Positions 5,877 to 61,590 of a stretch of 64,000 bases of DNA are shown in pieces (within the stretch, counting starts at the first letter, position 1; each line of letters begins with the position of its first letter). The notes below the pieces were generated by a model. It was not told the origin of the DNA. It did no database searches and saw only the letters and a program-made list of their open reading frames with translations. The position numbers and the translations under genes are program-made. Source of the stretch: Chiloscyllium plagiosum (lineage: Eukaryota); contig NC_057739.1 of NCBI RefSeq assembly GCF_004010195.1, positions 35,972,163 through 36,036,162 on the forward strand, given 5' to 3'.

Positions 5877-7415
5877 TATAAACTATTTGGAGATGAGTGT
5901 TGAGTGCAAAATCTTTAAATTTGCAGATGGTACTAAGCTAGGGAGACCAGTGAATTATGAGGATAATGTTGAGTGACTTCAGAGGGAAATTGACAAATTG
6001 GCCAAATGGGCAGACAGCTGGTAGATGAAATTCCATGCAGTGAAATCTGAGGAAATGCATTTTGGTAAAAGAAACACAGAAAGACAATATCATCTCAATG
6101 GTACAACTTTCATATGCATGATGCCCTGAAGGAAACCAGGCAAGTTGAAACAGTTGTTAAGGCAGTTTACAGGATCCTTACATTTATAAAAACAGGACCT
6201 AAATAATAAAAGAAAGCTACACCTCTACAAGTCATTTGTCAGACCACTTTTGAAGTATAGTGTTCAGTTCTGGGCACTGATTTAAGGAAGAAAGTTAAGG
6301 ACCTGGAGAGAGTTCAAAGAAGATTTACTAGAATGAGGGAATTTTAGATACAAGGAAAGACTGGAGAAATTAAACTTTTTCACCTTGGAGCAGAGAAGAT
6401 TAAGAGGTGATCTTATCAAGGTTTCAAAATTATGAACAATTTTGACAGGGTAAAGAAGGATATTTTGTTTTCACTAGTTGGCATGTCAGTAACTAAGGGT
6501 TACAATTTCAAAATTGTCAGCAAAAGAGCTAGCAGGGAAATGAGGAAGAATTCTTTTCTCAGGAAGTTGCTGGATTTGGAATGTAGTGCCTGGGAGAGTG
6601 GTGGAGGTGGACTCCATAGGAAGTTTCAAAAGAGAGCTGGATCTATATATTCGAAAGTGGTGAGTTTAGATGGCTACAGATATAGAGCGAAAGAATTGGA
6701 TTAGATAGGTAGCTCTTTCTGGAGCCAGCAGAGACACAATGGGTCAAACGGCCTTCTTCTGTACTGTAAATTTTGATGATTCTCTACCTTTAGAGTGAGT
6801 GAGCACTCTGACAGCAAGTGAAGAGCTGAGAGATGCAATCTGGTGCAGTCCATGAGCTAGATAAGTACAAATTGTCCTGACTGCAGCATTATAATTATTG
6901 TTGCCAGTGCCACATTGAAGTGCAGGAGAGTCCTATAAGTGAATCGGAGATGTGCCATGAGGGTTGTTAGAGGCTGGCAAATCTTGGATACCAATGTCTC
7001 TGTGGCCAGTGCCACAGATTTTGATGTGTGGTGTTCAACACGGTGGTTGTTTGGAGCAAACAGCAAGCTGAATCTGTAAGGTGCCTGCATGTTTCCATGT
7101 TGCGTTTTCATCCAGCTTGTTTCACAAGTTTGGTAAGATAGAAAGCTAAATATTAACAAGATGAATTGGGCCATTAACAAGGCATTTAACATGCTTTAAT
7201 TACTGTCAGTTGGCAACTCACTGCTGCCTAGCAAGACACTCGCCATGCCACTAGAGAAAAACATAAAAGATACGCAATATGCGTCTGGCCAGACTTCTCA
7301 ACTGATTCTGCCACACATCTCACCATGGTACACATCGCTTAGACTGCTGTAGATTTCATTTGATGCCTGACATCTGCACACACATTCAGATAATCAAGAT
7401 TCCTCTGTATTTGGA

Positions 7416-7990
7416 ACTTCAAGCTTTGGAACACTGCTCCTTCATCAGGTAGCTAATGGAGTAAGATCATAGGACGCAGAATTTGTAGCAATAGATCATA
7501 GTGTCATACACCGATGCAATATATTGAACAAACAGACTGTTGTTAAGATTTTCATCTTTTAGCTCCCACTGATTAGGTGATGCTAGAGTTATGATATAAT
7601 TTCACAGTCATCAGCACTGAATGACTGAACGCTGATATCCTGTGATATGCTGCAGTATAAATGGGACAGTTTCTGCCATCTATTGATTTGGATGATCAGT
7701 TTTTTTTAAACCCAGACTTGAAAGTGAATAATGCTTTGATTTGTTATCGAATTAAACTGGTCATACCAACAGTAATGGAAACAACCATTCTAAAAGATGA
7801 AAGACTTAACAGCAATCTAGGTTTGTTCAATATATTGCACCAGTATATGACATTATGATCTTTTGCTATAAATTCTATATCCTATGATCATACTCCACGA
7901 GCTACCTGACGAAGGAGCAGTGCTCCAAAAGTTTGTACTTTCAAATAAACCTGTTGGACTATAATCTGATGTTGTGTGATCTTTAACTTT
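7416..7990. mobile_element. Penelope-like fold-back remnant (inverted arms about 7416-7561 and 7790-7935) with decayed hammerhead cores
   Basis: The arms are reverse complements. The right arm has ctgacga-aggagc-agt-gctcc-aaaag and the aataaacctgttggactataatctgatgttgtgtga tail; about 230 bp of unrelated spacer. Confidence 0.7.
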
Positions 7991-9000: not shown

Positions 9001-9493
9001 CCTTTTCCTGCCTCCAATTGCCCCTACACAGAATCCACCATTCTCAAGTTTTGGCTTCAAAAATGTGCATGGCATTCCTTCATAAATATCAAACATCAAA
9101 AGTCACAGTCACTTTAGTCATACTGCATACTGCACAGTAACATCATGTACAACACCAGTAATACTCAAAACAATACATAAAAAGGAAGTGCACCAGAAAC
9201 AGCTCAGATTAGTCCATTTTCTACTTCGAGAAACCACCAGAATTTCAGACATTTCATGCTGTTACTCGATCACTCTATATCAATCTGCTAAACCTAAGCT
9301 TGCTTGGTACCTTTAAAAAAACTTCAGTCTTTCGATGCATCTCCTCTGGCTATGTAATAGTGCATCAGTGACAATCTATCATGGCCAGTGTGTGTCCTCC
9401 TGTTCTAGCCAATAACCTTGATTGTCCAAAACAGAGACTTCCAATTGACTAACTCCTTTATGCTTCCCTCCCTATAGGATCACCCACCAGATG

Positions 9494-10091
9494 GGCAAAA
9501 GTGAAGACTGCAGATGCTGGAGATTAGAGTCAAGATTAGGGTGGTGCTAGAAAAGCACAGCAGGTCAGGCAGCATCCGAGGAGCAGGAAAATCGATGTTT
9601 CGGGCAGAAGCCCTTCATCAGGAATGACTCAATAAAAGTTCCGTCTTGCTGCTTGCTGGCCCAGGTGGCTCTGCATGTGCTCTGCTGGACTTCACCCCAA
9701 ATAAAGATGGTAGTCATATAAGCAACTGCTGCACTTTGGCTCTGATATAGATGGTAACTACATATGTGCCCAGCTACATAGGTGGTGGCTGTTTAAATGA
9801 GGCTGTCGCCAAAAGAATTCCTGCATTTGCTACACTGCTTGGAAGCAAAAATGGGAACAGTAGCTTTTTATTTGTGACATAGGGCCTTCACTGGATATTT
9901 ATGAACCATACCCCTATCCCTATGCCATGGTACAATGCTCTCTTCCACAGAGAAAAAGCAGGACAAGGGCTTGGTAGGCCACCACTTCATCATTCCTGAT
10001 GAAGGACCCCTGCCCGAAACGTCGATTTTCCTGCTCCTCGGATGCTGCCTGACTTGCTGTGCTTTTCAGCACCACTCTAATCTTGACTCAG
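9494..10091. mobile_element. Penelope-like inverted-arm insertion enclosing a copy of nearby sequence
   Basis: Arms 9494-9625 (minus) and about 9991-10088 (plus), each with a hammerhead core. TSD cccaccagatg at 9483-9493 and 10092-10102. The filler 9626-9988 is the reverse complement of 10410-10755. Confidence 0.85.
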
Positions 10092-10149
10092 CCCACCAGA
10101 TGACCTATTTTGGATTAAGAACATAAAAAACAAGAATATCAATGTCCAC

Positions 10150-10206
10150 TATATGTCATAATATGTCATAATATGTCATAAAATGTCATAAAATGTCATA
10201 AAATGT
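10150..10206. repeat. 10-bp tandem repeat (A[T/A]ATGTCATA) x about 5
   Basis: atatgtcata x3, then aaatgtcata x2. Confidence 0.9.
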
Positions 10207-11136
10207 GTTAAAGAAATTGTTGCAAACTATTCTGTATGGCTACCTTTGTATTTCACGACAATTAATACTGCAATTCCTTCAAAACTTCTTTTTAAAAACT
10301 TTAAATCAACATTTCCCAAAGTGTGGATCACATAAGGATTTCAGAAACAGCAAATGGGATCATAAGCTCCCCTTCCAACAAGACTGGGTCCTACACTATA
10401 CTGAAAGTCGAAGTGGTGGCCAGCCAAGATCTTGTCCTTATTTTTTCTCTGTGGAAGAGAGCTTGGGACCAGGGCATAGGGGTAGGGTTAGGGGTATGGT
10501 TCATAAATAGCCAGTGAAGGCCTTAAATAAGAATCTACTGTTCCCACTTTTGCTTCCAAGCAGTGTAGCAAATGCAGGAATTCCTTTGGCGACAGCCTCA
10601 CTTAAACAGCCACCACCTATGTAGCTGGGCACATGTGTAGTTACTATCTATATCAGGGACAAAGTGTATCAGTTGCTTATTTGGGGTGAAATGCATCAGA
10701 GCACATGCAGAGCCACCTGGGCCAGCAAGCAGCAAGACAGAACTTTTATTGAGTCTTCTGTCATGGGAGAATATGGAGAGATTCACTGAAACCTAAGTAC
10801 ATAAAATAGTAACATTTAAAAGTATATTAAAACTTACATTTTCATACTTACGATGCATTTTTTCATCTATAATATGAAAACTTTAATAAGTACGTACTGA
10901 ATATCACTATGCTACATTATTTTTGTTTTGGTTTTGTTGTCATCAGAGATCAGATTAATTTGCAAATGTAAAAGGGAATCATACTAGAAAAATAGATTGG
11001 GCGCTTTAAATCTTGCCTCCTCCTAGGATGGACTTATTATTCACAAAAGAGCTGGGATAGGATCCAGATAACTGATTTAGAGGTAGCAAGACTGATAATG
11101 CAAGGACAGCCTTATCTAGGAATAAAAACAATGAAA

Positions 11137-18046: not shown

Positions 18047-19066
18047 TGAGAATGTGCATAGGGAATGAGCAGGTAGGGAAAGAGTTAGGTTTTGAATTTT
18101 GTGAAACAAAAGGTTCAGCTAGAATGACTTTAATCAGATAAGCACTTTCAGTAAACAATGAGATGCTGGAGGCAAGGGTAGTGGATTGCTGAGGTGAAAA
18201 AGTTTCATTATGTAAAGCCATTTAACAAGATAAAGAAGCATTCATTATGTAAATTCAGTTAAACAAGGTGAAAAGCATTCATTATGTGAAGCCAGTTAAG
18301 GTTAAGAACATTCACTGTATAACACCAGATGGCTTAATCTCTACTATTGATACTCACTGATTGCAACAGTCACCCAATCAATTTGAATGTATCCTTATCC
18401 GGATGGTGCTCCCTGTAAGTGATTATATACAGTAATTCCTTGAGGAGAAAGTGAGGACTGCAGATGCTGGAGATCAGAGCTGAAAATGTGTTGCTGGAAA
18501 AGCGCAGGTCAGGCAGCATCCAGGGAACAGGAGAATCGACGTTTCAGGCATAAGCCCTTCTTCAGGATTCCTGAAGAAGGGCTTATACCCGAAACGNTCA
18601 TCTCCTCTGCTCAGAAGCTCTTCAGCCACATTCTCAAACAGACTCGCTACCACAGCCATATCTCCTTCCTCAGCACCTGCCTACGGAACCGACTTATCCT
18701 GCACGGACTCCGGACTACGTTCCGACCAACAAAACTTGGACCCAACCAGGACAACCAGTACCTACAACAAATCCGAAGCCTCCAGCAACAGACCTCCCTC
18801 CGGATCCTTCGCAATTCCTGAAGAAGGGCTTATGCCCGAAACGTCGATTCTCCTGTTCCCTGGATGCTGCCTGACCTGCTGCGCTTTTCCAGCAACACAT
18901 TTTCAGCTACAGTAATTCCTTAAGAATCTACTGTTCGAGAGAAGACCGAGCACTCATGTCCCTGTGCACATGTCCCTCCAGGACCCGGAATAAAGATGAA
19001 GGAGGTAAACCTATACTGTGCTTCTGAGCGTTTTGCTTCAACTGAGGCGGGGACATGACGACAATA
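18047..19066 (+). mobile_element. 5' LTR (about 550 bp plus a 470-bp nested insertion) of an ERV/Gypsy-type element
   Basis: TGAGAATG...GACGACAATA. Colinear with the reverse complement of 22227-22776; AATAAA near 18988; immediately followed by a PBS. Confidence 0.88.
18442..18908. mobile_element. Penelope-like fold-back insertion nested in the 5' LTR
   Basis: TSD acagtaattcctt at 18429-18441 and 18909-18921. Inverted arms carry three hammerhead cores; the interior encodes a PLE N-terminal-like HISFLSTCLRNRLILHGL. One N at 18597. Confidence 0.85.
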
Positions 19067-19067
19067 T

Positions 19068-19085
19068 TGGCATGGTCAGCAGGAT
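19068..19085 (+). other. Primer-binding site, tRNA-Ser-like
   Basis: TGGCATGGTCAGCAGGAT, separated from the LTR end by one nt. 15/18 match to TGGCGTAGTCGGCAGGAT, the complement of the vertebrate tRNA-Ser 3' end (recalled). Confidence 0.75.
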
Positions 19086-19339
19086 CCAAACGAATAGTTG
19101 CAATCGGACGGTGTTACCGATTGCCCGGAACATTAGTATCTCGAGGCAGACAGGCCCCACAAAGCAAAATTTTAAACCTCGGTCAATATTTCTGTGTGCC
19201 GGAAATAGTCCCCTTGTTCGATCGCTCTCTATTCTATGGACGCCTCGAACGGTAATTAGTTCAGTCGAGAGAGACAGTTTCGCAAGCACGCTGACAAACA
19301 GAAGTTCGAGTCGTCTGCTCTGTATTGGGGGGGGATTTA

Positions 19340-20075
19340 ATTGAGGACCAAGTCCTTTGCGTTGTACCGGGGTTTAGGTTCCCGGGTTAAAGAGGTCACG
19401 ACCTCCGCGCTGTATTGGGCTTCGAGTCCCCTGGGTCAAATTCAAGTTCAAGTCCTCCGCGCTATTTTGAGTTTTGGGTCCCCAGGTTTTATCGAGGTTC
19501 AAATCCCCCACATTGTACTGGGGTTTGCGTCCCCCTGGGTTAAATTCAAGTTCAAGTCCTCCGTGCTGTATTGGAGTTTGAATCCCCTGGATTTTATTGA
19601 GGTTCAAGTCCTCCGCGCTGTATTTGGGTTTGGGTCCCCAGGATTAAATTGGGGTTCAAGTCCTCCGGGTTTTATCGAGGTTCAAGTCCCCTACGTTTTA
19701 TTGAGGTTCAAATCCTCCACGCTGTATTGAGGCTTGAATTGCATGGATTAAATGGATGTTCAAGTCTTCTGCGCTGTACTGGGGTTCAAGTCCCCCATGT
19801 TTTATCAAGATTCAAGTCCTCCGCGCTGTATTGGGGTTCAAGTCACCGGGGTTAATTTGAGGTTCAGGTCCTCTGCACTTATTTGGCATGGGGGGGTGGT
19901 TAATTGAGGTTCTAATCTTCCGCGCTGTGTTGGGGTTCGAGTCCCCGGGTTAAATGAGATTAGAGTCCTCCACACTGTTTTGGGGTTTGAGTCCTCTGGA
20001 TTTTAGGGAGGTTCAAGTCCTCCACGTTGTATTGGGGTTCGAGTTCTCTGTGTTTAAGTGAGATTCGCAACCTCC
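19340..20075 (+). repeat. 26-bp minisatellite (about 28 units, 52-bp higher order) in the LTR-element leader
   Basis: Core GGTTCAAGTCC recurs at multiples of 26 nt (e.g. 19601, 19653, 19679, 19705, 19783, 19835, 19861), with alternating cctccgcgctgtattgg and ccccgggtt.aattga spacers. Confidence 0.88.
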
Positions 20076-21666
20076 AGTCCCCGTGAGGAGTAAAGTGAGA
20101 AAGGGGTTGAAAACACCCTAATGGTGAAATTTGAGGCTCTGTGAGCCTTTGTTCTGGGGGAAAGAAAGTGGCTTGGACTGTGGCGTTGTGTGGTCCACTG
20201 TGAGGGCTTTCTCTTTTCCTAAGTGTAATTTTAGTGAGAGGATGCTAAAAACAAAATGAGAAACGCTGAAATTAAGGCTGTACTAATACTTGGGTTGAGA
20301 AAGGAAAGTTTCAATGTAAATTGTGCCATGCTGAGAGTGTTTGATGTTTAAAGGTTTTGGTTTGTTAAAACACTGGTTTGGAAAATCCTTTTAAGTAACT
20401 GTTTTACCTTGTTTGAATCAGGATCTCTATTCAATGTGCTTTGTGGGCTATGTAATGGGGCAGATTGTGTTTTTACATTAAAATTGTACAACATTATGTC
20501 CTTTTTAAAATTATCAAACTTGTAACCTTAAAACAAATTGATTGATTTAGTGTCTTTAGCCCCTGACTTGTTTCAAATTCCACAATACCTGTTTAAAAAG
20601 ACCATTGGGTCACTGCTCATGCTTTAGCCAGATGAGAGTATTGAATCATAATATCTTTGCTGCTATGCTTTTACTGCTGAGTGTTCACAAAAAGAAGAGT
20701 GCATTTTGAGTTTGATGCTTTGTGAAGATTTTAGAGAATATTAGAACCTGAGGCTGAGCTGTTTCAGTTCTGTTAATTATTGTTAAGACTTCATTGGCCC
20801 CCTTCATATTGCAAATTCAAAGAATGTTGATCTCTACCAAAGTTGCCACTGCAATTCCGACTGTTTTATTTGGGAAGTTTCATTTGGGGAACATACTTTA
20901 ATATATTCTGCATTTGTTTCCCACAAATATTTTAAATCTTAACTGAAACGGCCTCTTCAATTGCTACAACACAGGAAATGTTTTGTTGTTTTCTTGTTGT
21001 TCTAGATTTTGGAAATACTTTTCCTGACGGCTTTCACATTAGCTAAGTATCAATTTGTTAAAGGAAAATAATTTTTGAATAACCTGAATGGGGTCCCCCG
21101 AGGATTTGATTTTAGGACAAGTGATTGTTGTTTATAATTGACTGAATTGCTTAGGCAGTACAATTTAGAAGTTTATGGATTGTATAAAACTTGATAATGT
21201 CATAATTCGTTAACAGAGTAACAGACTTCAAGAATTCAAAGCATGTTGAAATAGGCATACACTATTTAGTGTAATTAAATGTGTGACTGTCTTCACACTG
21301 ATAACCACCTTGGCAAAGAAGGAATGAGAGAGGAAATGCAAAGATACTTTCAGCAGCTAACATCTTCTCTAGAGTTTCTCCATTCACCGATAAAGCACGC
21401 CTTCGGACCGCCGCCCACCCCTCCACAACCTGATCCAACGGATTCAATCAGCTCCCCAGTTATGAACAGTGAAGAAGTTAACAACAGTGAAGAGCAGATC
21501 GTACACTTTTCGTCAGTGGCCTTCCTGTGGACATTAAACCATGTCAGCTCTACCTTGTCTTTCGATCATTACATGACAACTGCCAGTTGGCTTTGTTACT
21601 TTTAACAGCAGAGTGGGAACAGCAAGGAATGCTGTGCTCACCTAGCCTGCAGCTGCAGGTGCTGCA

Positions 21667-21912
21667 CTGAGGGGCAACCTTTTCACACAGAGGGTGGTGG
21701 GTGTATGGAATGAGCTGCCAAAGAAAGTGGTAGAGGCAGGTACAATTACAGTTTTTAAAAGACGTTTGGACAGGTACATGGATAGGAAAGATTTAGAGGA
21801 AAAGGGCCAAATGCAGATACATGGGACTAGTTCAGTTTAGGAAATCTGCTCAGCACAGACAAGTTGGGCCAAAGTATCTGTTTCTGTGCTGTATGACTCT
21901 GACTCTATGATT
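21667..21912 (+). mobile_element. CR1 3' fragment at the left inversion breakpoint
   Basis: ctgaggggcaaccttttcacacagagggtgg...tatgactctgactctatga; its upstream bases lie on the minus strand at 23220-23230. Confidence 0.85.
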
Positions 21913-22049
21913 CTGAAAAATTCAGTGGTTTTAACTTTCTGGCTTGTTATCTGTTAATATTTCAATTCTACTGCCTACTTATTGCTGCTACCTGCTATGT
22001 GCCAAGGCATCCCTTTGGCTTGGGCTAGTTTTAAACTGCTGTCTGAAAA

Positions 22050-22226
22050 TAGAACATAGAACATTACAGTGCAGTGCAGACTCTTTGGCCCTCGATGTTG
22101 TGCCAACCTGTGGAACCAATCTGAAGCCCAACTAACCAATACTATTCCATTTTCATTCATATGTCTATCCAATGACCATTTAAATGTCCTTAAAGTTGGC
22201 GAGTCTTATACTGTTGCAGGCAGTGC
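22050..22226 (-). mobile_element. 3' end of the CR1 interrupted at 18046, now on the opposite strand
   Basis: Minus strand gcac-tgcctgcaacagt...actttaaggacatttaaatggtcattggatagacatatg...tgttctatgttctat continues the CR1 WN-x-LP frame. Confidence 0.85.
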
Positions 22227-22776
22227 TATTGTCGTCCCATACCCGCCTCAGTTAAAGCAAAATGCTCAGAGACACGGTATAGTTTTACCTCTTTCATCTT
22301 TATTCCAGGCCCTGGAGGGAGAGAGAATTAATGCCCATGTGGACAGGGACATGTTTCTCAGTCTTCTCTCTCAAACAGCAGATTCTTGAGAAATTATATA
22401 GTCACTTACAGGGAGTAGCATCCAGATAGGCAACATTCAAATTGATTGGGTGACCTTTAGAATCAGCAAGGGTCAATAGTAGAGATTAAGCCATCTGGTG
22501 TTTTACAATGAATGTTCTTAGCCTTAACTGGCTTCACATAATGAATGCTTTTCACCTTGTTTAACTGACTTTACATAATGAATGCTTCTTTATCTTGTTA
22601 AAAGACTTTACATATGAAAGATTTTTCATCTCAGCAACCTACTACCCTTTCCTCCAGCACCTCATTGTTTACTGCAAGTTCTTATCTGATCAAAGTCATG
22701 CTAGCTGAACATCTTGTTTCACAAAACTCAAAACCTGACTCTTTCCCTACCTGCTCATTCCCTATGCACATTCTCA
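22227..22776 (-). mobile_element. 3' LTR of the same element, inverted; PPT at 22777-22788
   Basis: Reverse complement of the 5' LTR. On the minus strand it is preceded by the purine tract AAAAGGAGGGAA and followed by GCAC (compare ACAC at 18043-18046, a 4-bp TSD with one transition). Confidence 0.88.
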
Positions 22777-28400: not shown

Positions 28401-29512
28401 TTGTCCCAATGTACAGTATGTATAAATTAAAAATACTGACCTGACAGATGGGTCCTTATTAAATTTGAAGCGCGTGGCCTTTCTTGAAGAATACAATAGT
28501 CTACATTTCGATTGACTATTCAACTTTTTAAAGAATAAAACAAAATATACGATGATCCTTTACGCTTTCTCTACTTCGGGAGTCTTTTTCTCTACTACTG
28601 TTCTCTATGAACCATGCGTGTCTCTCGCAGCAGGCACAAAACTGACTCCCACATCTTTGCAATTCTGCAGCTGTTGAAGAGCATAACCGTGATCCATGTT
28701 GACTCTACAATTTTCATTTCCTCTCTTACGTCAGATGCCTGCTACATATTACTTCCACACCCAAACCACAGAGATTCAGAATTCAGACTTGCAGGTTACT
28801 GCTCTGCGATAAAATCTTTAAAACTCTCTTAGTTCAAAGGAGATGGCATGTAAAAGTCATTTCAAAGTTGAGTATTTATAAACAGTTGTTCATATAATAC
28901 ACTATACTTAAATTGATGCAACATTTGTATATTTTTAAAATAAAGGCATGCATCTGTAAACAGTTATGGTTTTGTCATTTCCGCCTATCTGAAAGGAATG
29001 CTGATTCCAGAAGTGTGCACAGCAGCAAGCAACTACAGCTCCAAGAAGAACGCGAAAAAATATCAATGGTGACAAACCCATGCTACAGGAAAAATCATTC
29101 AAAGCAAAGTAAACACAACTTACTAATGAAGAAATTACTTAATATAGTGACTGAAAAGGCCGTACTCAAGAAGTACATAATCATTAACAGTTTCCATTTA
29201 CTGACGTACTCAACTGCACATAAAACAATGGTGCATAACATCTGGGACATTCATTTGTAAATATTCAGTATTCTCAAAAGGCTTTGAAATAGCATCATCC
29301 CACTGACAGCCACAACTGTAATGTTAATTTTGACCCACTTAGTAAATAAAAATCTGAACATAATTAAGTGAACTTTGGGGTTCAGCTGGGAGGAAATGCA
29401 CTGCCTTCCTGCATTCCTAATTCAGTTACATCCTAGTGTAGTCCCAAGCCTGAGTGATTTGTAGCTTTTAAATTTTATGGACAGTCCAAATCACAGAAAA
29501 TATTCAAGTCAA

Positions 29513-30268
29513 AGTCTGTGAGAAGATTTGTAGCTCGGGTGCTCGTTGTTGTGGTTCTGTTCGCCGAGCTGGGAATTTGTGTTGCAGACGTTTCGTCCCC
29601 TGTCTAGGTGACATCCTCAATGCTTGGGAGCCTCCTGTGAAGCGCTTCTGTGATCTTTCTTCCGGCATTTGTAGTGGTTTGAATCTGCCGCTTCCGGTTG
29701 TCAGTTCCAGCTGTCCGTTGCAGTGGTCAGTATATTGGGTCCAGGTCGATGAGCTTATTGATAGAATCTGTGGATGAGTGCCATGCCTCTAGGAATTCCC
29801 TGGCTGTACTCTGTTTGGCTTGTCCTTTAATAGTAGTGTTGTCCCGGAATGAGGACATGCCGCAACCCAAAGGACTAGCCACACTACCATACNNNNNNNN
29901 NNNNNNNNNNNNNNNNNNNNTAGTGGTTTGTATCTGCCGCTTCCGGTTGTCAGTTCCAGCTGTCCGTTGCAGTGGTCGGTATATTGGGTCCAGATCGATG
30001 TGCTTCTTGATTGAATCTGTGGATGAGTGCCATTGCCTCTAGGAATTCCCTGGCTGATCTACAGATTCTATCAATAAGCACATCGACCTGGACCCAATAT
30101 ACCGACCACTGCAACGGACAGCTGGAACTGACAACCGGAAGCGGCAGATTCAAACCACTACAAATGCCGGAGGAAAGATCACAGAAGCGCTTCACAGGAG
30201 GCTCCAAAGCACTGAGGATGTCACCTAGACAGGGGACGAAACGTCTGCAACTCAAATTCGGCGAACAG
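29513..30268. mobile_element. Penelope (GIY-YIG 3' end) multi-arm fold-back insertion
   Basis: TSD aatattcaagtcaa at 29499-29512 and 30269-30282. Two minus arms and one plus arm (REFLEAWHSSTDSINK.IDLDPIY), hammerhead cores, N gap 29893-29920. Confidence 0.88.
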
Positions 30269-31429
30269 AATATTCAAGTCAAGTTACAAGGGCATAGAGA
30301 GTGTAAAGTTGAAAATGTGAAAAGTTTCCCATAGTGGAGAATGGCTGTTCCTTAATACAGTGCAAATTTGTCCCTTTTGATAGCTGAAAGAGTTTACTGA
30401 GCAAAAAGCAATGTCATATAAGATAAGAAGCTAGTAGAACAGTCAGACAAGTAGGAAGTACATTTTAGCCTGGATAAATTGAGGTGATATTTTGGGAGTG
30501 AAATCATAGTTGCAGATTATTTGACTAGCTAGTTCTATAAAGTACAAAACCTTGTCTAACCTTTAATTCTGTACTAGTGCCCTACAGTTTTCCCATCAGA
30601 GTCCATACTTAAATAACTGGTCTCTTCACAACTAAAATCTAAGTTACAAACCATTTATCACCAGTTGCCCTCTGTGCACTCTTCAGTGCTTTCCTGCTCT
30701 TTTAAATTAAAATAAAAAAATACCCCAGGTCTCTTTAGATGCTGTTAGGACCAGCTGCAAACTTAAGTGTTTTCAGTTGATTCAAATGTACAAATTTATT
30801 TTCTTTTCCTTTTCATTCATGGCATTTTTTCAAAAAGTTGGAGCATTTCATATTTCATGTAATATTCTAAATGTGACTTTATCAAGAAGTGATCTTGGGT
30901 TAGAATAGTCTGTTAAATTGTAATTAAATGAATGTTTGATACAGCCCAGATATCTGCTTCACATTAATTGAAGACTTTAGAGACAATCAAGAGCAATATA
31001 TTGGGATCCTTTTTCACTCTTACCAAAGGCCACTGTGATCCCAAGTTTTGTTTTTCTGTTCAAACATACACAAAAGTCTGGTATTGTTCAGCCATTCAGT
31101 AATTCAAATTTCCCCAAAATAATTACTTGTCCCAAGTACAGTCTATTCCTCAAAGTCTATTAAATCAATTGTTTAATGGTTCAGCTTTTATTAGAAAGAC
31201 TAAATTCAGTCATTGCTGTGCTATTAACCTTAACTCAATATAATTAGATAATACTCAATTTGCATTTTAGCATAAAATATAACAGAGTAGAATTTATTTC
31301 CCAAATTCTAACCGATTAAATAAAGACCAGTCCAGAAAATAGAGTTGAATGATAAAACTAAATTTAAAAAATATACTTTCACTGTTTTTCTTTCAAAGCT
31401 CCATTGCGGGATGTGGACGTCATTAGCTG

Positions 31430-37813: not shown

Positions 37814-38075
37814 TTGACTAAAGGCACAGCCTTAATGATAAGGCTGAGGAAGCAAGAATGCACAGAAGGCTGCAGGGTCAAAGGGATATAAAGGCAGTGA
37901 ATGTGTTTCTAGTGCTGAAGAAATTTATGAGGAGAAAGTGAGGTCTGCAGATGCTGGAGATTGACTAAAGGCACAGCCTTAATGATAAGGCTGAGGAAGC
38001 AAGAATGCACAGAAGGCTGCAGGGTCAAAGGGATATAAAGGCAGTGAATGTATTTCTAGTGCTGAAGAAATTTAT
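37814..38075. repeat. 115-bp direct duplication separated by a 32-bp Penelope terminal tag
   Basis: 37814-37928 and 37961-38075 differ at one base. The spacer gaggagaaagtgaggtctgcagatgctggaga matches the start of the 18442 insertion (one mismatch). Confidence 0.92.
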
Positions 38076-46759: not shown

Positions 46760-46940
46760 AGACGGTCCAGCTGCTCAGAGACAGAAAAAGAAGTTTGGAA
46801 GGACAATGGCATTCAGGGATTTGTTATGAGGGAAGTTGTTGGGTACCTCTGCAACTGTCAACGTGACTTCAAGATGGCATATTATCTCCCAGATATCAGG
46901 GTCATAGATGTCACAGAACAACTACAGGGAATTCTGAAAG
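46760..46940 (+). mobile_element. CR1 ORF1 (SGNH-esterase-like) fragment
   Basis: CNCQRDFKMAYYLPDIRVIDVTEQLQGILK resembles the CR1 ORF1 motif R.V.CLPGARV.DV...L..IL. Confidence 0.6.
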
Positions 46941-46943
46941 ATG

Positions 46944-47450
46944 ATGACCAGAACGAAGGACCCAATACCCAGCATGAGCAAAACCAATGTAATGTACAAA
47001 ATCCCATGCAAGGACTGCACAAAACACTACATAGGACAAACAGGAAGACAGCTAACGATCCGCATCCATGAACACCAACTAGCCACGAAACGATACGACC
47101 AGCTACCCTTAGTAGCCACACACGCAGATGACAAGCAACATGAATTCGACTGGGACAACACTACTATTATAGGACAAGCCAAACAGAGAACAGCCAGGGA
47201 ATTCCTAGAGGCATGGCACTCATCCACAGATTCAATCAATAAGCACATCGACCTAGACCCAATATACCGACCACTGCAACAGACAGCTGGAACTGACAAC
47301 CGGAAGCGGCAGATTGAAACCACTACAAATGCCGGAAGAAAGATCACAGAAGCGCTTCACAGGGGCGTCCCAAGCACTGAGGATGTCACCTAGACAGGGG
47401 ATGAAACGTCTGCAACACAAATTCCCAGTTTGGCGAACAGAACCACAACA
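46944..47450 (+). mobile_element. Penelope 3' end (GIY-YIG endonuclease plus terminal repeat)
   Basis: NVMYKIPCKDCTKHYIGQTGRQLTIRIHEH...REFLEAW; hammerhead core at 47374-47413. Confidence 0.92.
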
Positions 47451-54450: not shown

Positions 54451-54717
54451 GTGAGTAAATGCAAAACGATCCACTTGACAATACGTGAAAAAAATTAAAG
54501 GGGGCGAGTAGGGAATATAGCAGTATAAGTAAAGGACATGATGTTGAGGTGCCAGTGTTGGACTGGGGTGGACAAAATTAAACATCATTTAACACCAGAT
54601 TATAATCCAGTCTGTTGGACGATAACCTCGTGTTGTGATTTTTTTTTAAACAAAGTAAAAGTCTGAAAGATGAGTTTGACAGGTAACGCAAACACCTTAG
54701 ACGGAAGCTTCTAGATG

Positions 54718-56466
54718 GTAAAAACAATGACTGCAGATGCTGGAAACCAGATTCTGGATCAGTGGTGCTGGAAGAGCACAGCAATTCAGGCAGCATCCGA
54801 GGACAGGCAAAATCGACGTTTCGGGCAAAAGCCCTTCATCAGGAATAAAGGCAGAGAGCCTGAAGCGTGGAGAGATAAGCTAGAGGAGGGGGGGGGTGGG
54901 GAGAAAGTGGCATAGAGTACAATAGGTCAGGGGGGAAGGAGATGAAGGTGATAGGTCAGGGAGGAGAGGGTGGAGATCGTCAGGAATGTGGTGAGGGGGC
55001 AATGGGGCTGAAAGATAAATACTGGGCTGGGCTGGTGGGAGGGTCACTGGGAAGGCGATAAGAATATGTAGGTGGGATTGATTGTGATATGTCGGAGGGG
55101 AGGGTGGAGTGGATAGTTGGGAAGGAAGATGGACAATTAGTTCAGTTCAAGAGGGCAGTGCGAGGTTGAACGGTTGGATCTGGGAGAGGTTGGTGAGGGG
55201 ATATTTGGAATTTGGTGAGGTCAACGTTGATACTGTACAGTTTGAAGTTTCCAGCTGTCCTATCACCTATCCACTTCACCGTCCTCTCCGACAGATCACC
55301 ATCACACCCCACCTGCATCTACCTATCGTCTTCCAAGCTACCTTCCACACAGCTCCATCCCCACTCTCATATTTATTTCTTCGCACCCTTTCCTCTCCCT
55401 TAACCCCAACTTTCCTGATGAAGGATTTATGCCTGAAACGTCAACTCTCCTGCCCCTCGGATGCCACCAACTTGCTGTGCTTTTCCATGACTACACTATT
55501 CAACTCTCATCTTCAGCATCTGCAGCCCTCACTTTCTCTCGGCCNNNNNNNNNNNNNNNNNNNNNNNNNNNNNNNNNNNNNNNNNNNNNNNNNNNNNNNN
55601 NNNNNNNNNNNNNNNNNNNNNNNNNNNNNNNNNNNNNNNNNNNNNNNNNNNNNNNNNNNNNNNNNNNNNNNNNNNNNNNNNNNNNNNNNNNNNNNNNNNN
55701 NNNNNNNNNNNNNNNNNNNNNNNNNNNNNNNNNNNNNNNNNNNNNNNNNNNNNNNNNNNNNNNNNNNNNNNNNNNNNNNNNNNNNNNNNNNNNNNNNNNN
55801 NNNNNNNNNNNNNNNNNNNNNNNNNNNNNNNNNNNNNNNNNNNNNNNNNNNNNNNNNNNNNNNNNNNNNNNNNNNNNNNNNNNNNNNNNNNNNNNNNNNN
55901 NNNNNNNNNNNNNNNNNNNNNNNNNNNNNNNNNNNNNNNNNNNNNNNNNNNNNNNNNNNNNNNNNNNNNNNNNNNNNNNNNNNNNNNNNNNNNNNNNNNN
56001 NNNNNNNNNNNNNNNNNNNNNNNNNNNNNNNNNNNNNNNNNNNNNNNNNNNNNNNNNNNNNNNNNNNNNNNNNNNNNNNNNNNNNNNNNNNNNNNNNNNN
56101 NNNNNNNNNNNNNNNNNNNNNNNNNNNNNNNNNNNNNNNNNNNNNNNNNNNNNNNNNNNNNNNNNNNNNNNNNNNNNNNNNNNNNNNNNNNNNNNNNNNN
56201 NNNNNNNNNNNNNNNNNNNNNNNNNNNNNNNNNNNNNNNNNNNNNNNNNNNNNNNNNNNNNNNNNNNNNNNNNNNNNNNNNNNNNNNNNNNNNNNNNNNN
56301 NNNNNNNNNNNNNNNNNNNNNNNNNNNNNNNNNNNNNNNNNNNNNNNNNNNNNNNNNNNNNNNGCTCTCTGCCTTTATTCCTGATGAAAGGCTTTTACCC
56401 GAAACGTCGATTTTGCCTGTCCTCGGATGCTGCCTGAATTGCTGTGCTCTTCCAGCACCACTGATC
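54718..56466. mobile_element. Composite Penelope-like fold-back insertion spanning an assembly gap (N 55545-56363)
   Basis: 16-bp TSD cggaagcttctagatg at 54702-54717 and 56467-56482. Near-identical inverted outer arms with hammerhead cores; a more diverged inverted pair inside. Confidence 0.85.
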
Positions 56467-56714
56467 CGGAAGCTTCTAGATGCCAGACCCTTGGGGGCAC
56501 GGTTGTTTTTTGTCAAAAGAGATTTTATTTTAAATAACGGTTTTCATACTGCTTAAAATATTTTCTTTTTTTGATTACAGAGCGTCACCTGTTATGGGAG
56601 ATACTACTCAAGTCGCATTATTGTGATTGTAAACACGTTTTGGGGGTGGCTTAGGTTTGGCAACGTGTGTGGAGAGAAAACACTCTTAAACATTCGAGTA
56701 GTTAAAACCTAGAA

Positions 56715-60112: not shown

Positions 60113-60796
60113 CTAATGATATAATATGTAGTGCTCATTCCCTTCAGCGTTTTGTTTCATTATACCTTCATTTTTCATTACTGATGCTCTGTCTATTTAT
60201 TATTTGTATCTGCCATCTTGTCTCATTGTAAGCATGCTTTCATTCTAGGATGGCTTTTGGTTTAGGCCTCTTTGCTTGACCTGAGCACATAATCCAACTA
60301 GTATTTCATTGTATAACTGAGGGATTGATTGTGGGGAAATACCAACTTTTGTATGAGTCATTAAACTGAACTTCATCTTCCTATTTAGGTGGATATCAGA
60401 GATCCTTTGGTATTCTGCAGAAAAGAGGTTGAGAGAGTTCCCAATGTCTTTATCAAAATCTATTCCCCAACACCACCATATGAAAGGAGTATTCAGTTAC
60501 TTGTCTCATCATTGTGGGTTTTTGTGCAAATTTATTGCCGTGTTGGTCGACATAACAACATCAGTTTCAGAAGTACCTGTGATTGCAAGTTTAATAAAGG
60601 ATTGGCCCAATGTTTTTATATCTCTTACATATCCATTTTATAGCAGATATTCTGTACTTTGTAATAATCTCTTTCAACTGATGTGTGGCTTGCTGCCTAG
60701 ATCTACACTTCTGCAACAGTATAGCAAATACTGCCATGTGTTACATAAAATTTTGCATCACAGAAACAGGCCATTCTGACCAACTGATCTCTGCTG

Positions 60797-60915
60797 TTCT
60801 AGATTTGAGTGGTGCTGGAAAAGCACAGCAGGTCAGGCAAAAGCCCTTCATCAGCTTTTCCAGCACCACTCTAATCTAGACTCTGATCTCCAGCATCTGC
60901 AGTCCTCACTTTCAC
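60797..60915. mobile_element. Collapsed Penelope-like inverted-arm insertion
   Basis: tctagatttgagtggtgctggaaaagc ... gcttttccagcaccactctaatctaga plus tail; TSD ctga(t/c)ctctgctg at 60784-60796 and 60916-60928. Confidence 0.8.
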
Positions 60916-61590
60916 CTGACCTCTGCTGGTGTTTATAATTTCAATGTCCTCCCATTTGACATCATTTCAGCCAATTAGAATACCCTATTTACTTTCCCCT
61001 TGTGCTTAACTAATTTCCACTTAAAAGGTCTGAACTGTTTTTTGGTGGCCAGTTCTCCATTCTCACCATCCTCCAGCATTAAAAAAAAATTAAATTTATT
61101 ATTTGATTTATTAGTAACTAGTTAAATTTATGGTCCTGAGGTTTGAACTTTGCTCCAAATGGAAACATTTGTAAATTGGCCCTATCAAACTCACCTCTCA
61201 GTCCTACTAGAGAAGTCGGCCCTACTGTTTTATTTGACCTAATGGGTATAACATCTTAGTTATTGAATCCCTAAGATTTTTTTGCACTTTTTTCGAATCC
61301 CTCTATATCCTTTTTTAATACAGACAGACCTCCAACTGCCATCTAAGTAAGGATTTGTTGAAGTTTAACAATACTTTTTAAATTTTGTTCCTTTAGACAG
61401 GAAGCTCAATGGCCAATTGTTTGTGAAATTTTGTTTCCTTTATTCAGGAATGTTCAAACATTTGTTTTTGATTAGTGTCTTGATCATGTACAAGAGATAA
61501 TTAAATTTTTTGTTACGGTTAGTTGTTGTTCTTTATTTAAGTGCTTGAATTTGGCAATTGTAAATTAAATCTATTGTCTATGTTGTTTAG

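Follow-up and report, generated by a model that had tools for sequence, protein, structure and literature searches.

Insertions of Penelope-like elements (PLEs) are marked by an inverted, 5'-truncated copy, a one-sided tail of 30-40 bases, a target-site duplication (TSD) and a hammerhead in the pLTR (PMC8557442, Craig et al. 2021; PMC3846280), and long TSDs are also described (PMC9977147). In purified form, a lizard PLE protein cuts each of the two target strands and extends it, and reverse transcription starts from two sites that bound the tail; the same source calls the later steps of integration unvalidated and gives the hammerhead cut site by position only (PMC11167929, Frangieh et al. 2024). 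In Adineta vaga, unrelated host DNA has been found between Penelope pLTRs within TSDs (PMC3846280, Arkhipova et al. 2013). For other retroelements, the ends of R2 cDNA prime on the cDNA or, less often, on the nearby rDNA target ahead of 5' junction formation (PMC11371274, Zhang et al. 2024, PRINT), whilst local inverted duplications of 52-220 bp made up 4 of ~1,200 somatic L1 events (PMC10191854, Nam et al. 2023) and have been modelled as self-annealing of a resected end (10.1101/2024.12.14.628481, Mendez-Dorantes et al.).

In the present study, we analyzed a 64-kb stretch of DNA (hereafter, the window) that holds a TSD-bounded unit at 9483-10102, and this site belongs, as a Penelope-type variant, to a class of templated junction that is already known. 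With endonuclease-positive (EN+) PLE units it shares head-to-head arms, a 33-base one-sided tail, an 11-bp TSD and a hammerhead core near the inner ends, but its centre is inverted neighbouring host DNA, whereas theirs is element sequence or nothing (PMC8557442, PMC11167929). As in the A. vaga captures, foreign sequence lies between pLTRs in one TSD-bounded unit; there, however, a gene was copied to a new place or the spacers were of unstated origin, whereas here the source lies 307 bases from the target and is inverted (PMC3846280). The likeness to R2 is that a cDNA 3' end appears to prime on its own cDNA or on the nearby target before joining, as in R2 snap-back junctions, but the R2 system was engineered, in human cells, with one cDNA per site and an rDNA target, whereas our unit arose naturally, is a fossil in the germ line and has two cDNA arms with, on our reading, both kinds of priming in series (PMC11371274). 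With the L1 events it has in common an inverted copy of target-adjacent sequence and a 2-base homology, explained by a resected 3' end that self-anneals; in those events a bare genomic end folds back via a small hairpin (PMC10191854; 10.1101/2024.12.14.628481), whereas the priming end here would have ~100 bases of cDNA attached and would pass over 307 bases, and the copied stretch, at 346 bases, exceeds theirs in length. A preliminary description of the locus had presented such capture as apparently new for sharks. This novelty is smaller than supposed, since the same type of junction has been published for R2 and L1; a search of the open-access literature turned up no report of PLEs capturing local DNA in inverted orientation, nor any on shark PLE junctions.

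Results

Anatomy of the insertion

An exact-match search revealed identical copies of the 11-bp TSD, CCCACCAGATG, at 9483-9493 and 10092-10102 on the plus strand. Even if 25x25 positions of slack are allowed, an 11-mer would match by chance next to the two outer ends with a probability of ~2e-4. Between the two copies lie, in order, a tailed arm (arm A, 9494-9627, minus strand), a 363-bp filler (9626-9988, minus strand), base 9989 and a tail-less inverted arm (arm B, 9990-10091, plus strand), and there is no ORF in the 9483-10102 unit. Arm A is the 3' end of a very high-copy Penelope-like family, as seen from 8 other copies in the window, raw-read depth and a regular expression for the hammerhead core (9621-9594); its element sense is the minus strand. 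Alignment of the arms sets off its outer 33 bases (9494-9526, minus strand), the "tail" of the element 3' end, which are missing from arm B and whose size fits the one-sided 30-40-base tail of PLEs (PMC8557442). Arm B, defined by alignment and by its own core match (9996-10023), has the plus strand as element sense and is an inverted copy of 9527-9627, with 94 matches, 6 transitions and one 1-base gap (9527-9627 vs 9990-10089). The exact TSD and the alignments bear out the earlier reading of a single TSD-bounded unit made of an arm, a filler and an inverted arm. The unit is genuine, old and well preserved.

To its right lie 307 bases of host DNA (10103-10409), with a 10-base tandem repeat at 10153-10206 and no plus-strand GAAG, followed by the donor (10410-10755, plus strand), a 346-base stretch of low-copy host DNA that joins its flanks without a break in relatives. 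BLAST and alignment showed that the filler is the reverse complement of 10410-10755 (E 1.5e-117), the 339 aligned columns comprising 311 matches and 28 substitutions, alongside gaps of 17, 7, 6 and 1 bases, in agreement with the original account of an inverted copy aged by substitutions and indels. Its nearby location also stands, and the distance given as ~320 bp past the right TSD is corrected to 307 bases after the TSD and 318 after the arm. The 17 extra bases of the filler resemble sequence 44 bases downstream (9700-9717 and 9744-9756), and the difference is either a filler insertion or a donor deletion.

Sensitive BLAST and nhmmer searches of the 64-kb window found no third copy of the filler or donor, and the next matches had E >= 0.005 and were 17-mers or weaker. 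A 16-base donor match to 18921-18936 (E 0.17) was taken as chance. An inverted match of 150+ bases within 1.5 kb was found for 8 of the 171 N-free 363-base tiles; the filler/donor pair accounts for 3 of these tiles and three other element-like pairs for the remaining 5.

Copy number of the arms and the filler

The copy number of the filler and arms was estimated from read depth in 4 runs (X4, X5, X12 and X19) of 24 from three organisms, mapped at 80% likeness. X19 represents raw reads of organism A (~4% of the run), and X4, X5 and X12 are contig runs. In X19, depth over arm A was 76,000-83,000, as compared with 0.23, 0.28 and 1.54 in three inner filler bins and a mean of 1.2 in 12 flank bins, with arm-touching bins, the tandem-repeat bin and the last two bins left out (values given 0.04, 0 and 0). 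This depth ratio suggests roughly 10^4-10^5 arm copies. X19 has no reads over 10420-11120, donor and right flank alike, and is uninformative on the donor. Filler and donor depth versus flank depth in the contigs was 4-14 vs 5-14 in X4, 7-51 vs 0-34 in X5 and 0-148 vs 30-82 in X12; such contig depths are not copy numbers, yet they are orders of magnitude under the arm depth. Filler depth was at flank level in all four runs, none of which displayed extra depth from a third copy at 80% likeness, although contigs show presence rather than absence.

The reads of the arm family also tell the filler from the element. Family reads run to ...GGAATGA and then diverge, leaving loose ends at 9627. In X19, the loose ends behind 9625 and 9627 (15,847 and 18,488 reads, respectively) have a sequence unlike the filler, and the consensus of the loose contig ends, GGCTTGTG..., differs from the filler in all three contig runs. 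Because the reads of other family members continue past 9625-9627 differently, the filler is not element consensus; nor is it a high-copy repeat, its depth being that of the flanks against ~80,000 for the arm. Of these two alternatives, both raised in the preliminary description, neither was borne out, and the data support a filler of low-copy local DNA.

Assignment of the arm family

The core pattern CTGAnGA...GAAAC occurs in both arms, at 9996-10023 (+) and 9621-9594 (-). Rfam returned 0 matches at gathering score in the 64-kb window and no hammerhead family among the 4 matches at E<=5 in 9400-10800. The hammerhead-like stems of the arms are imperfect, folding of the arm RNA gave z of ~ -1.1 to -1.4, and the minimum fold is not a hammerhead. 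The term hammerhead-bearing, as originally applied, holds for the arms at core-motif level only. On the tail side, loose ends show that reads of the family stop at either of two positions, 9494-9506 and 9541-9545.

A 73-aa frame within 18600-18818, in the sister unit at 18428-18921, has 12 relatives, the best of which (88%) is labelled a Hemiscyllium protein. None of the 12 had a Pfam match, no long relative was found, and no RT or GIY-YIG domain was linked to the arm family via these relatives. Judged by its structure, on which membership rests, the unit looks like a Penelope-like insertion. Two arms with their 3' ends outward would be expected, because the PLE protein extends both strands from two RT starts.

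Junctions of the filler

Comparison of the junctions with each other and with family reads revealed a 2-base microhomology at the left junction (9626-9627, plus strand), where GA is common to the element end and the donor. An extended imperfect homology was considered here as well and was rejected, its pairing ranking 14 of 52.

The right junction (9985-10004, minus strand) forms a hairpin, CTTCATCA-GGAA-TGATGAAG, according to junction and fold analysis. On the minus strand it reads ...CTTCATCA-GGAA-TGA/TGAAG/TGGTGG, and the five bases after the element boundary complete the hairpin on the arm's own CTTCA. The last four bases of the hairpin, GAAG at 9988-9985, are the first four of the donor (10410-10413), while base 9989 is in neither the donor nor the aligned arm; both the additional base and the 4-base donor match are accounted for by the hairpin. 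Position 10410 is the first GAAG in the right flank, the others being 10454 and 10516 (3 sites in the first kilobase). The frequency of TGAAG is ~0.001-0.002 per position. In pairing energy for the hairpin end, 10410 ranks 8 of 67, and 10516 offers TGAAG. The predicted fold of the bare cDNA end has -1.7 kcal/mol, which becomes -6.5 after the five bases are added, and the three-pair start of the hairpin differs from the predicted minimum-energy fold of that bare end. The hairpin interpretation of the right junction was made post hoc.

The donor borders carry a direct repeat, AGTC, before the donor (10406-10409) and at its end (10752-10755), with p ~0.006 for a fixed register. This repeat is left unexplained by the fold-back reading that we favour below.

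Age and orthologues

The filler/arm-B junction is bridged, with 31+ letters on each side, by contigs from a second sample of organism A (X4), from organism B (X5) and from organism C (X12). Given that contigs of all three bridge this junction, the structure is real and predates the A/B/C splits. In addition, a contig of organism B bridges the left flank and arm A, and a contig of organism A (X4) runs from arm B to the donor. No empty site was seen: none of the 15 joints listed for X4, X5, X12 and X19, with 1,570 more beyond the listing, skips the whole unit.

The JC distance is 0.088 (0.058-0.127) for filler and donor and 0.063 (0.023-0.138) for the arm pair, and flank distances are 0.018-0.027 between A and B and 0.032-0.047 between A and C. 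Divergence of the arm pair and of the filler/donor pair is alike (Fisher p=0.53, a comparison with little power). Such equal ages, calculated from the two alignments, would fit one event, and, as the intervals are wide, there may also have been two separate events. The filler came with or after the insertion, because it begins and stops exactly where the two arms have their inner ends. Among the 40 of 158 difference rows listed, 19 fall in the filler: 5 move toward the donor base, 13 move away from it where filler and donor are equal, and 1 does neither. At 5 listed filler sites, B and C share a base that differs from the window, and at 4 of these it is the donor base; the variant at 9847, common to B and C, moves away from the donor.

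Other units in the window

Local host filler was located in one (9483-10102) of the six two-armed units examined in the window. Of the others, the 18.4-kb and 29.5-kb units (the latter interrupted by a gap) hold element sequence, the 54.7-kb unit has element sequence of greater age plus a gap, the 60.8-kb unit has no centre, and the 7.4-kb unit has a centre of 227 bases. Sister units with the same plan have exact TSDs of 14 bp (18428-18921) and 16 bp (54702-56482) or an 8-bp exact core (60789-60928). The centre of the 18428-18921 unit is the element's own ORF start, joined at GTC after the hammerhead core, and in the tiny 60789-60928 unit an internal jump takes the tail-less arm to the hammerhead end, after which the tailed arm begins.

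Several further observations concern the same window. About 550 bases of low-copy DNA are inverted-duplicated 3.2 kb apart (18047-19066 vs 22227-22776, 90% and 77%). The 18428-18921 insertion sits in the left copy, and the right copy lacks it and forms an approximate empty site (7 bases vs 12 expected). The inverted duplication spanning 18047-22776 may mark an inversion with a duplicated breakpoint, and we suspect that it splits a CR1 element between 18 and 22.8 kb. A second PLE-like family is represented at 29499-30282 by inverted arms, a 14-bp TSD, another type of hammerhead core and a central gap; a related sequence at 46938-47450 has a translation that resembles GIY-YIG by eye, with no Pfam match at E 0.01. 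An older pair of inverted arms (84%) of a third family, with no clear TSD, lies at 7408-7947, and its 227-base centre has no source within the window. A 32-base, tail-only piece of the arm family (37929-37960) is found between the two copies of a 115-base direct duplication (37814-38075); these copies differ at one base, and the target duplication is unusually long, and young. Finally, 19326-20076 is a diverged 26/52-base tandem array of ~750 bases.

Discussion

What the sequence supplies is anatomy alone, namely the TSD, the arms, the filler, the microhomologies and the hairpin, and from it we infer the order and polarity of the steps. On balance, we favour a single event in which two-ended reverse transcription was probably followed by snap-back DNA synthesis on the cut chromosome. 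More specifically, the endonuclease would make an 11-base staggered cut, and each 3' end would prime reverse transcription, one at the tail start and the other 33 bases further in, with both cDNAs stopping a few bases beyond the hammerhead core. The end of the arm-B cDNA, ...CTTCATCAGGAATGA-3', could then pair with itself (3 bp, GGAA loop) and add TGAAG, and the new GAAG end would re-prime at 10410 on its own resected strand. Outward synthesis to 10755 would copy 346 bases, after which the product would be joined to arm A via GA and the gaps filled. Either the element RT or a host repair polymerase might carry out the self-pairing, re-priming and outward synthesis.

The near end of the donor is joined to the near arm, which is the junction order expected from a same-strand fold-back. 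The features of a snap-back junction are likewise present, i.e., an inverted copy (the 5-base hairpin and the 346-base donor) and microhomology (GAAG and GA). An L1-type fold-back directly beside the TSD was not found: arm B lies between the TSD and the filler, and 307 bases are skipped. Both the geometry and the nearest GAAG agree with cDNA priming on its own strand; they also agree with the opposite polarity, which can be drawn with arm A priming at 10755 and copying towards the break, and which gives the same junctions. Capture during integration, as first proposed, is supported in part, by a local, low-copy filler that meets the inner ends of the arms. The proposed path of the polymerase from element to chromosome and back finds less support: each arm is more readily taken as a cDNA of its own, started at one of the two cut ends.

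Other explanations of the same anatomy have to be considered. Either a local RNA or the opposite DNA strand over 10410-10755 might have been the template to which the RT jumped from an arm end, and the product might then have been joined to the other arm; we regard this as rather unlikely. It is the account to which the polymerase switch of the preliminary description comes nearest, and it would be the same event with another template or polarity. The geometry admits both polarities, and 2-base pairing, as at the left junction, resembles RT template jumping; the extended pairing there is imperfect and unremarkable in rank. Template switches on RNA are likely in the arm family, given the element-ORF filler of 18428-18921 and the jump within the element at 60789-60928. 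The right-junction hairpin, however, would still need DNA, and no host exon was seen nearby. Pfam was run on 149 stop-to-stop frames, those with at least 50 aa in 1-22,132, and none reached its cut-off; this is a weak test, as 21 more such frames follow up to 26 kb and shorter ones fall outside it. A nearby pre-mRNA has been co-inserted once with L1 (PMC10191854). It is less probable still that a near-perfect two-arm hairpin came first and that its palindromic centre was later broken and mended with an insert templated by nearby DNA. Palindromes can undergo centre-break repair, the arms are predicted to pair very stably (~ -117 kcal/mol), and in many family copies the arms meet directly or nearly so (joints from 9622-9627 to 10011 in each of the four runs; 60789-60928). 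Here, though, the arms end at the family's usual stop (9627 and its equivalent, 9990) with neither arm deleted, and the ages of arms and filler agree, a point that weighs against late repair to the extent that differing ages are expected only after a long delay; the delay may have been short.

The direction of copying might also be reversed, with the filler coming from another locus or an RNA and 10410-10755 having been copied afterwards from the filler loop and placed in an AGTC site. At its boldest, this idea would have the filler derive, as cDNA, from an RNA fragment cleaved at GUC on either side. GTC is the hammerhead cleavage triplet, and both donor borders follow GTC, in line with the AGTC copies before and at the end of the donor. 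This pattern was spotted post hoc, however, and the TC of the far border is already demanded by the GA microhomology; moreover, TTCTG after the far GTC cannot pair with stem I of the arm, and no run has the depth of a third copy at 80% likeness. We consider this reversal very improbable. We hardly credit at all that an unrelated repeat or a fault of the assembly accounts for the filler: apart from gaps in the window assembly and arms of a very high-copy family, no support for it was found, and it is at odds with the flank-level depth of the filler, with the bridging of the filler/arm-B junction in X4, X5 and X12 and of arm B to the donor in X4, and with copies that are 8% diverged and carry indels.

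The two-ended, snap-back event that we favour is described for one locus, and a single site does not establish a genome-wide process. The suggestion that these elements generally give rise to local inverted duplications of host sequence goes beyond the window, where local host filler was located in one of six two-armed units. We tentatively raise a broader idea, which we hold to be possible yet doubtful, that two-ended reverse transcription by PLEs leaves an open central junction that is recurrently closed by cDNA-primed fold-back, possibly by the element's RT. If true, tens of thousands of family copies would hold a large fossil record of short inverted host duplications with fixed polarity, and the last, still unsolved step of PLE integration could be read directly from it.

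No functional effect is apparent for the 9483-10102 site. The joining of two inverted PLE arms is an open step, for which a hairpin-then-flank junction predicts both the polarity and the reach of resection. If such events are frequent, they would copy pieces of promoters, introns or exons, inverted, next to their source.
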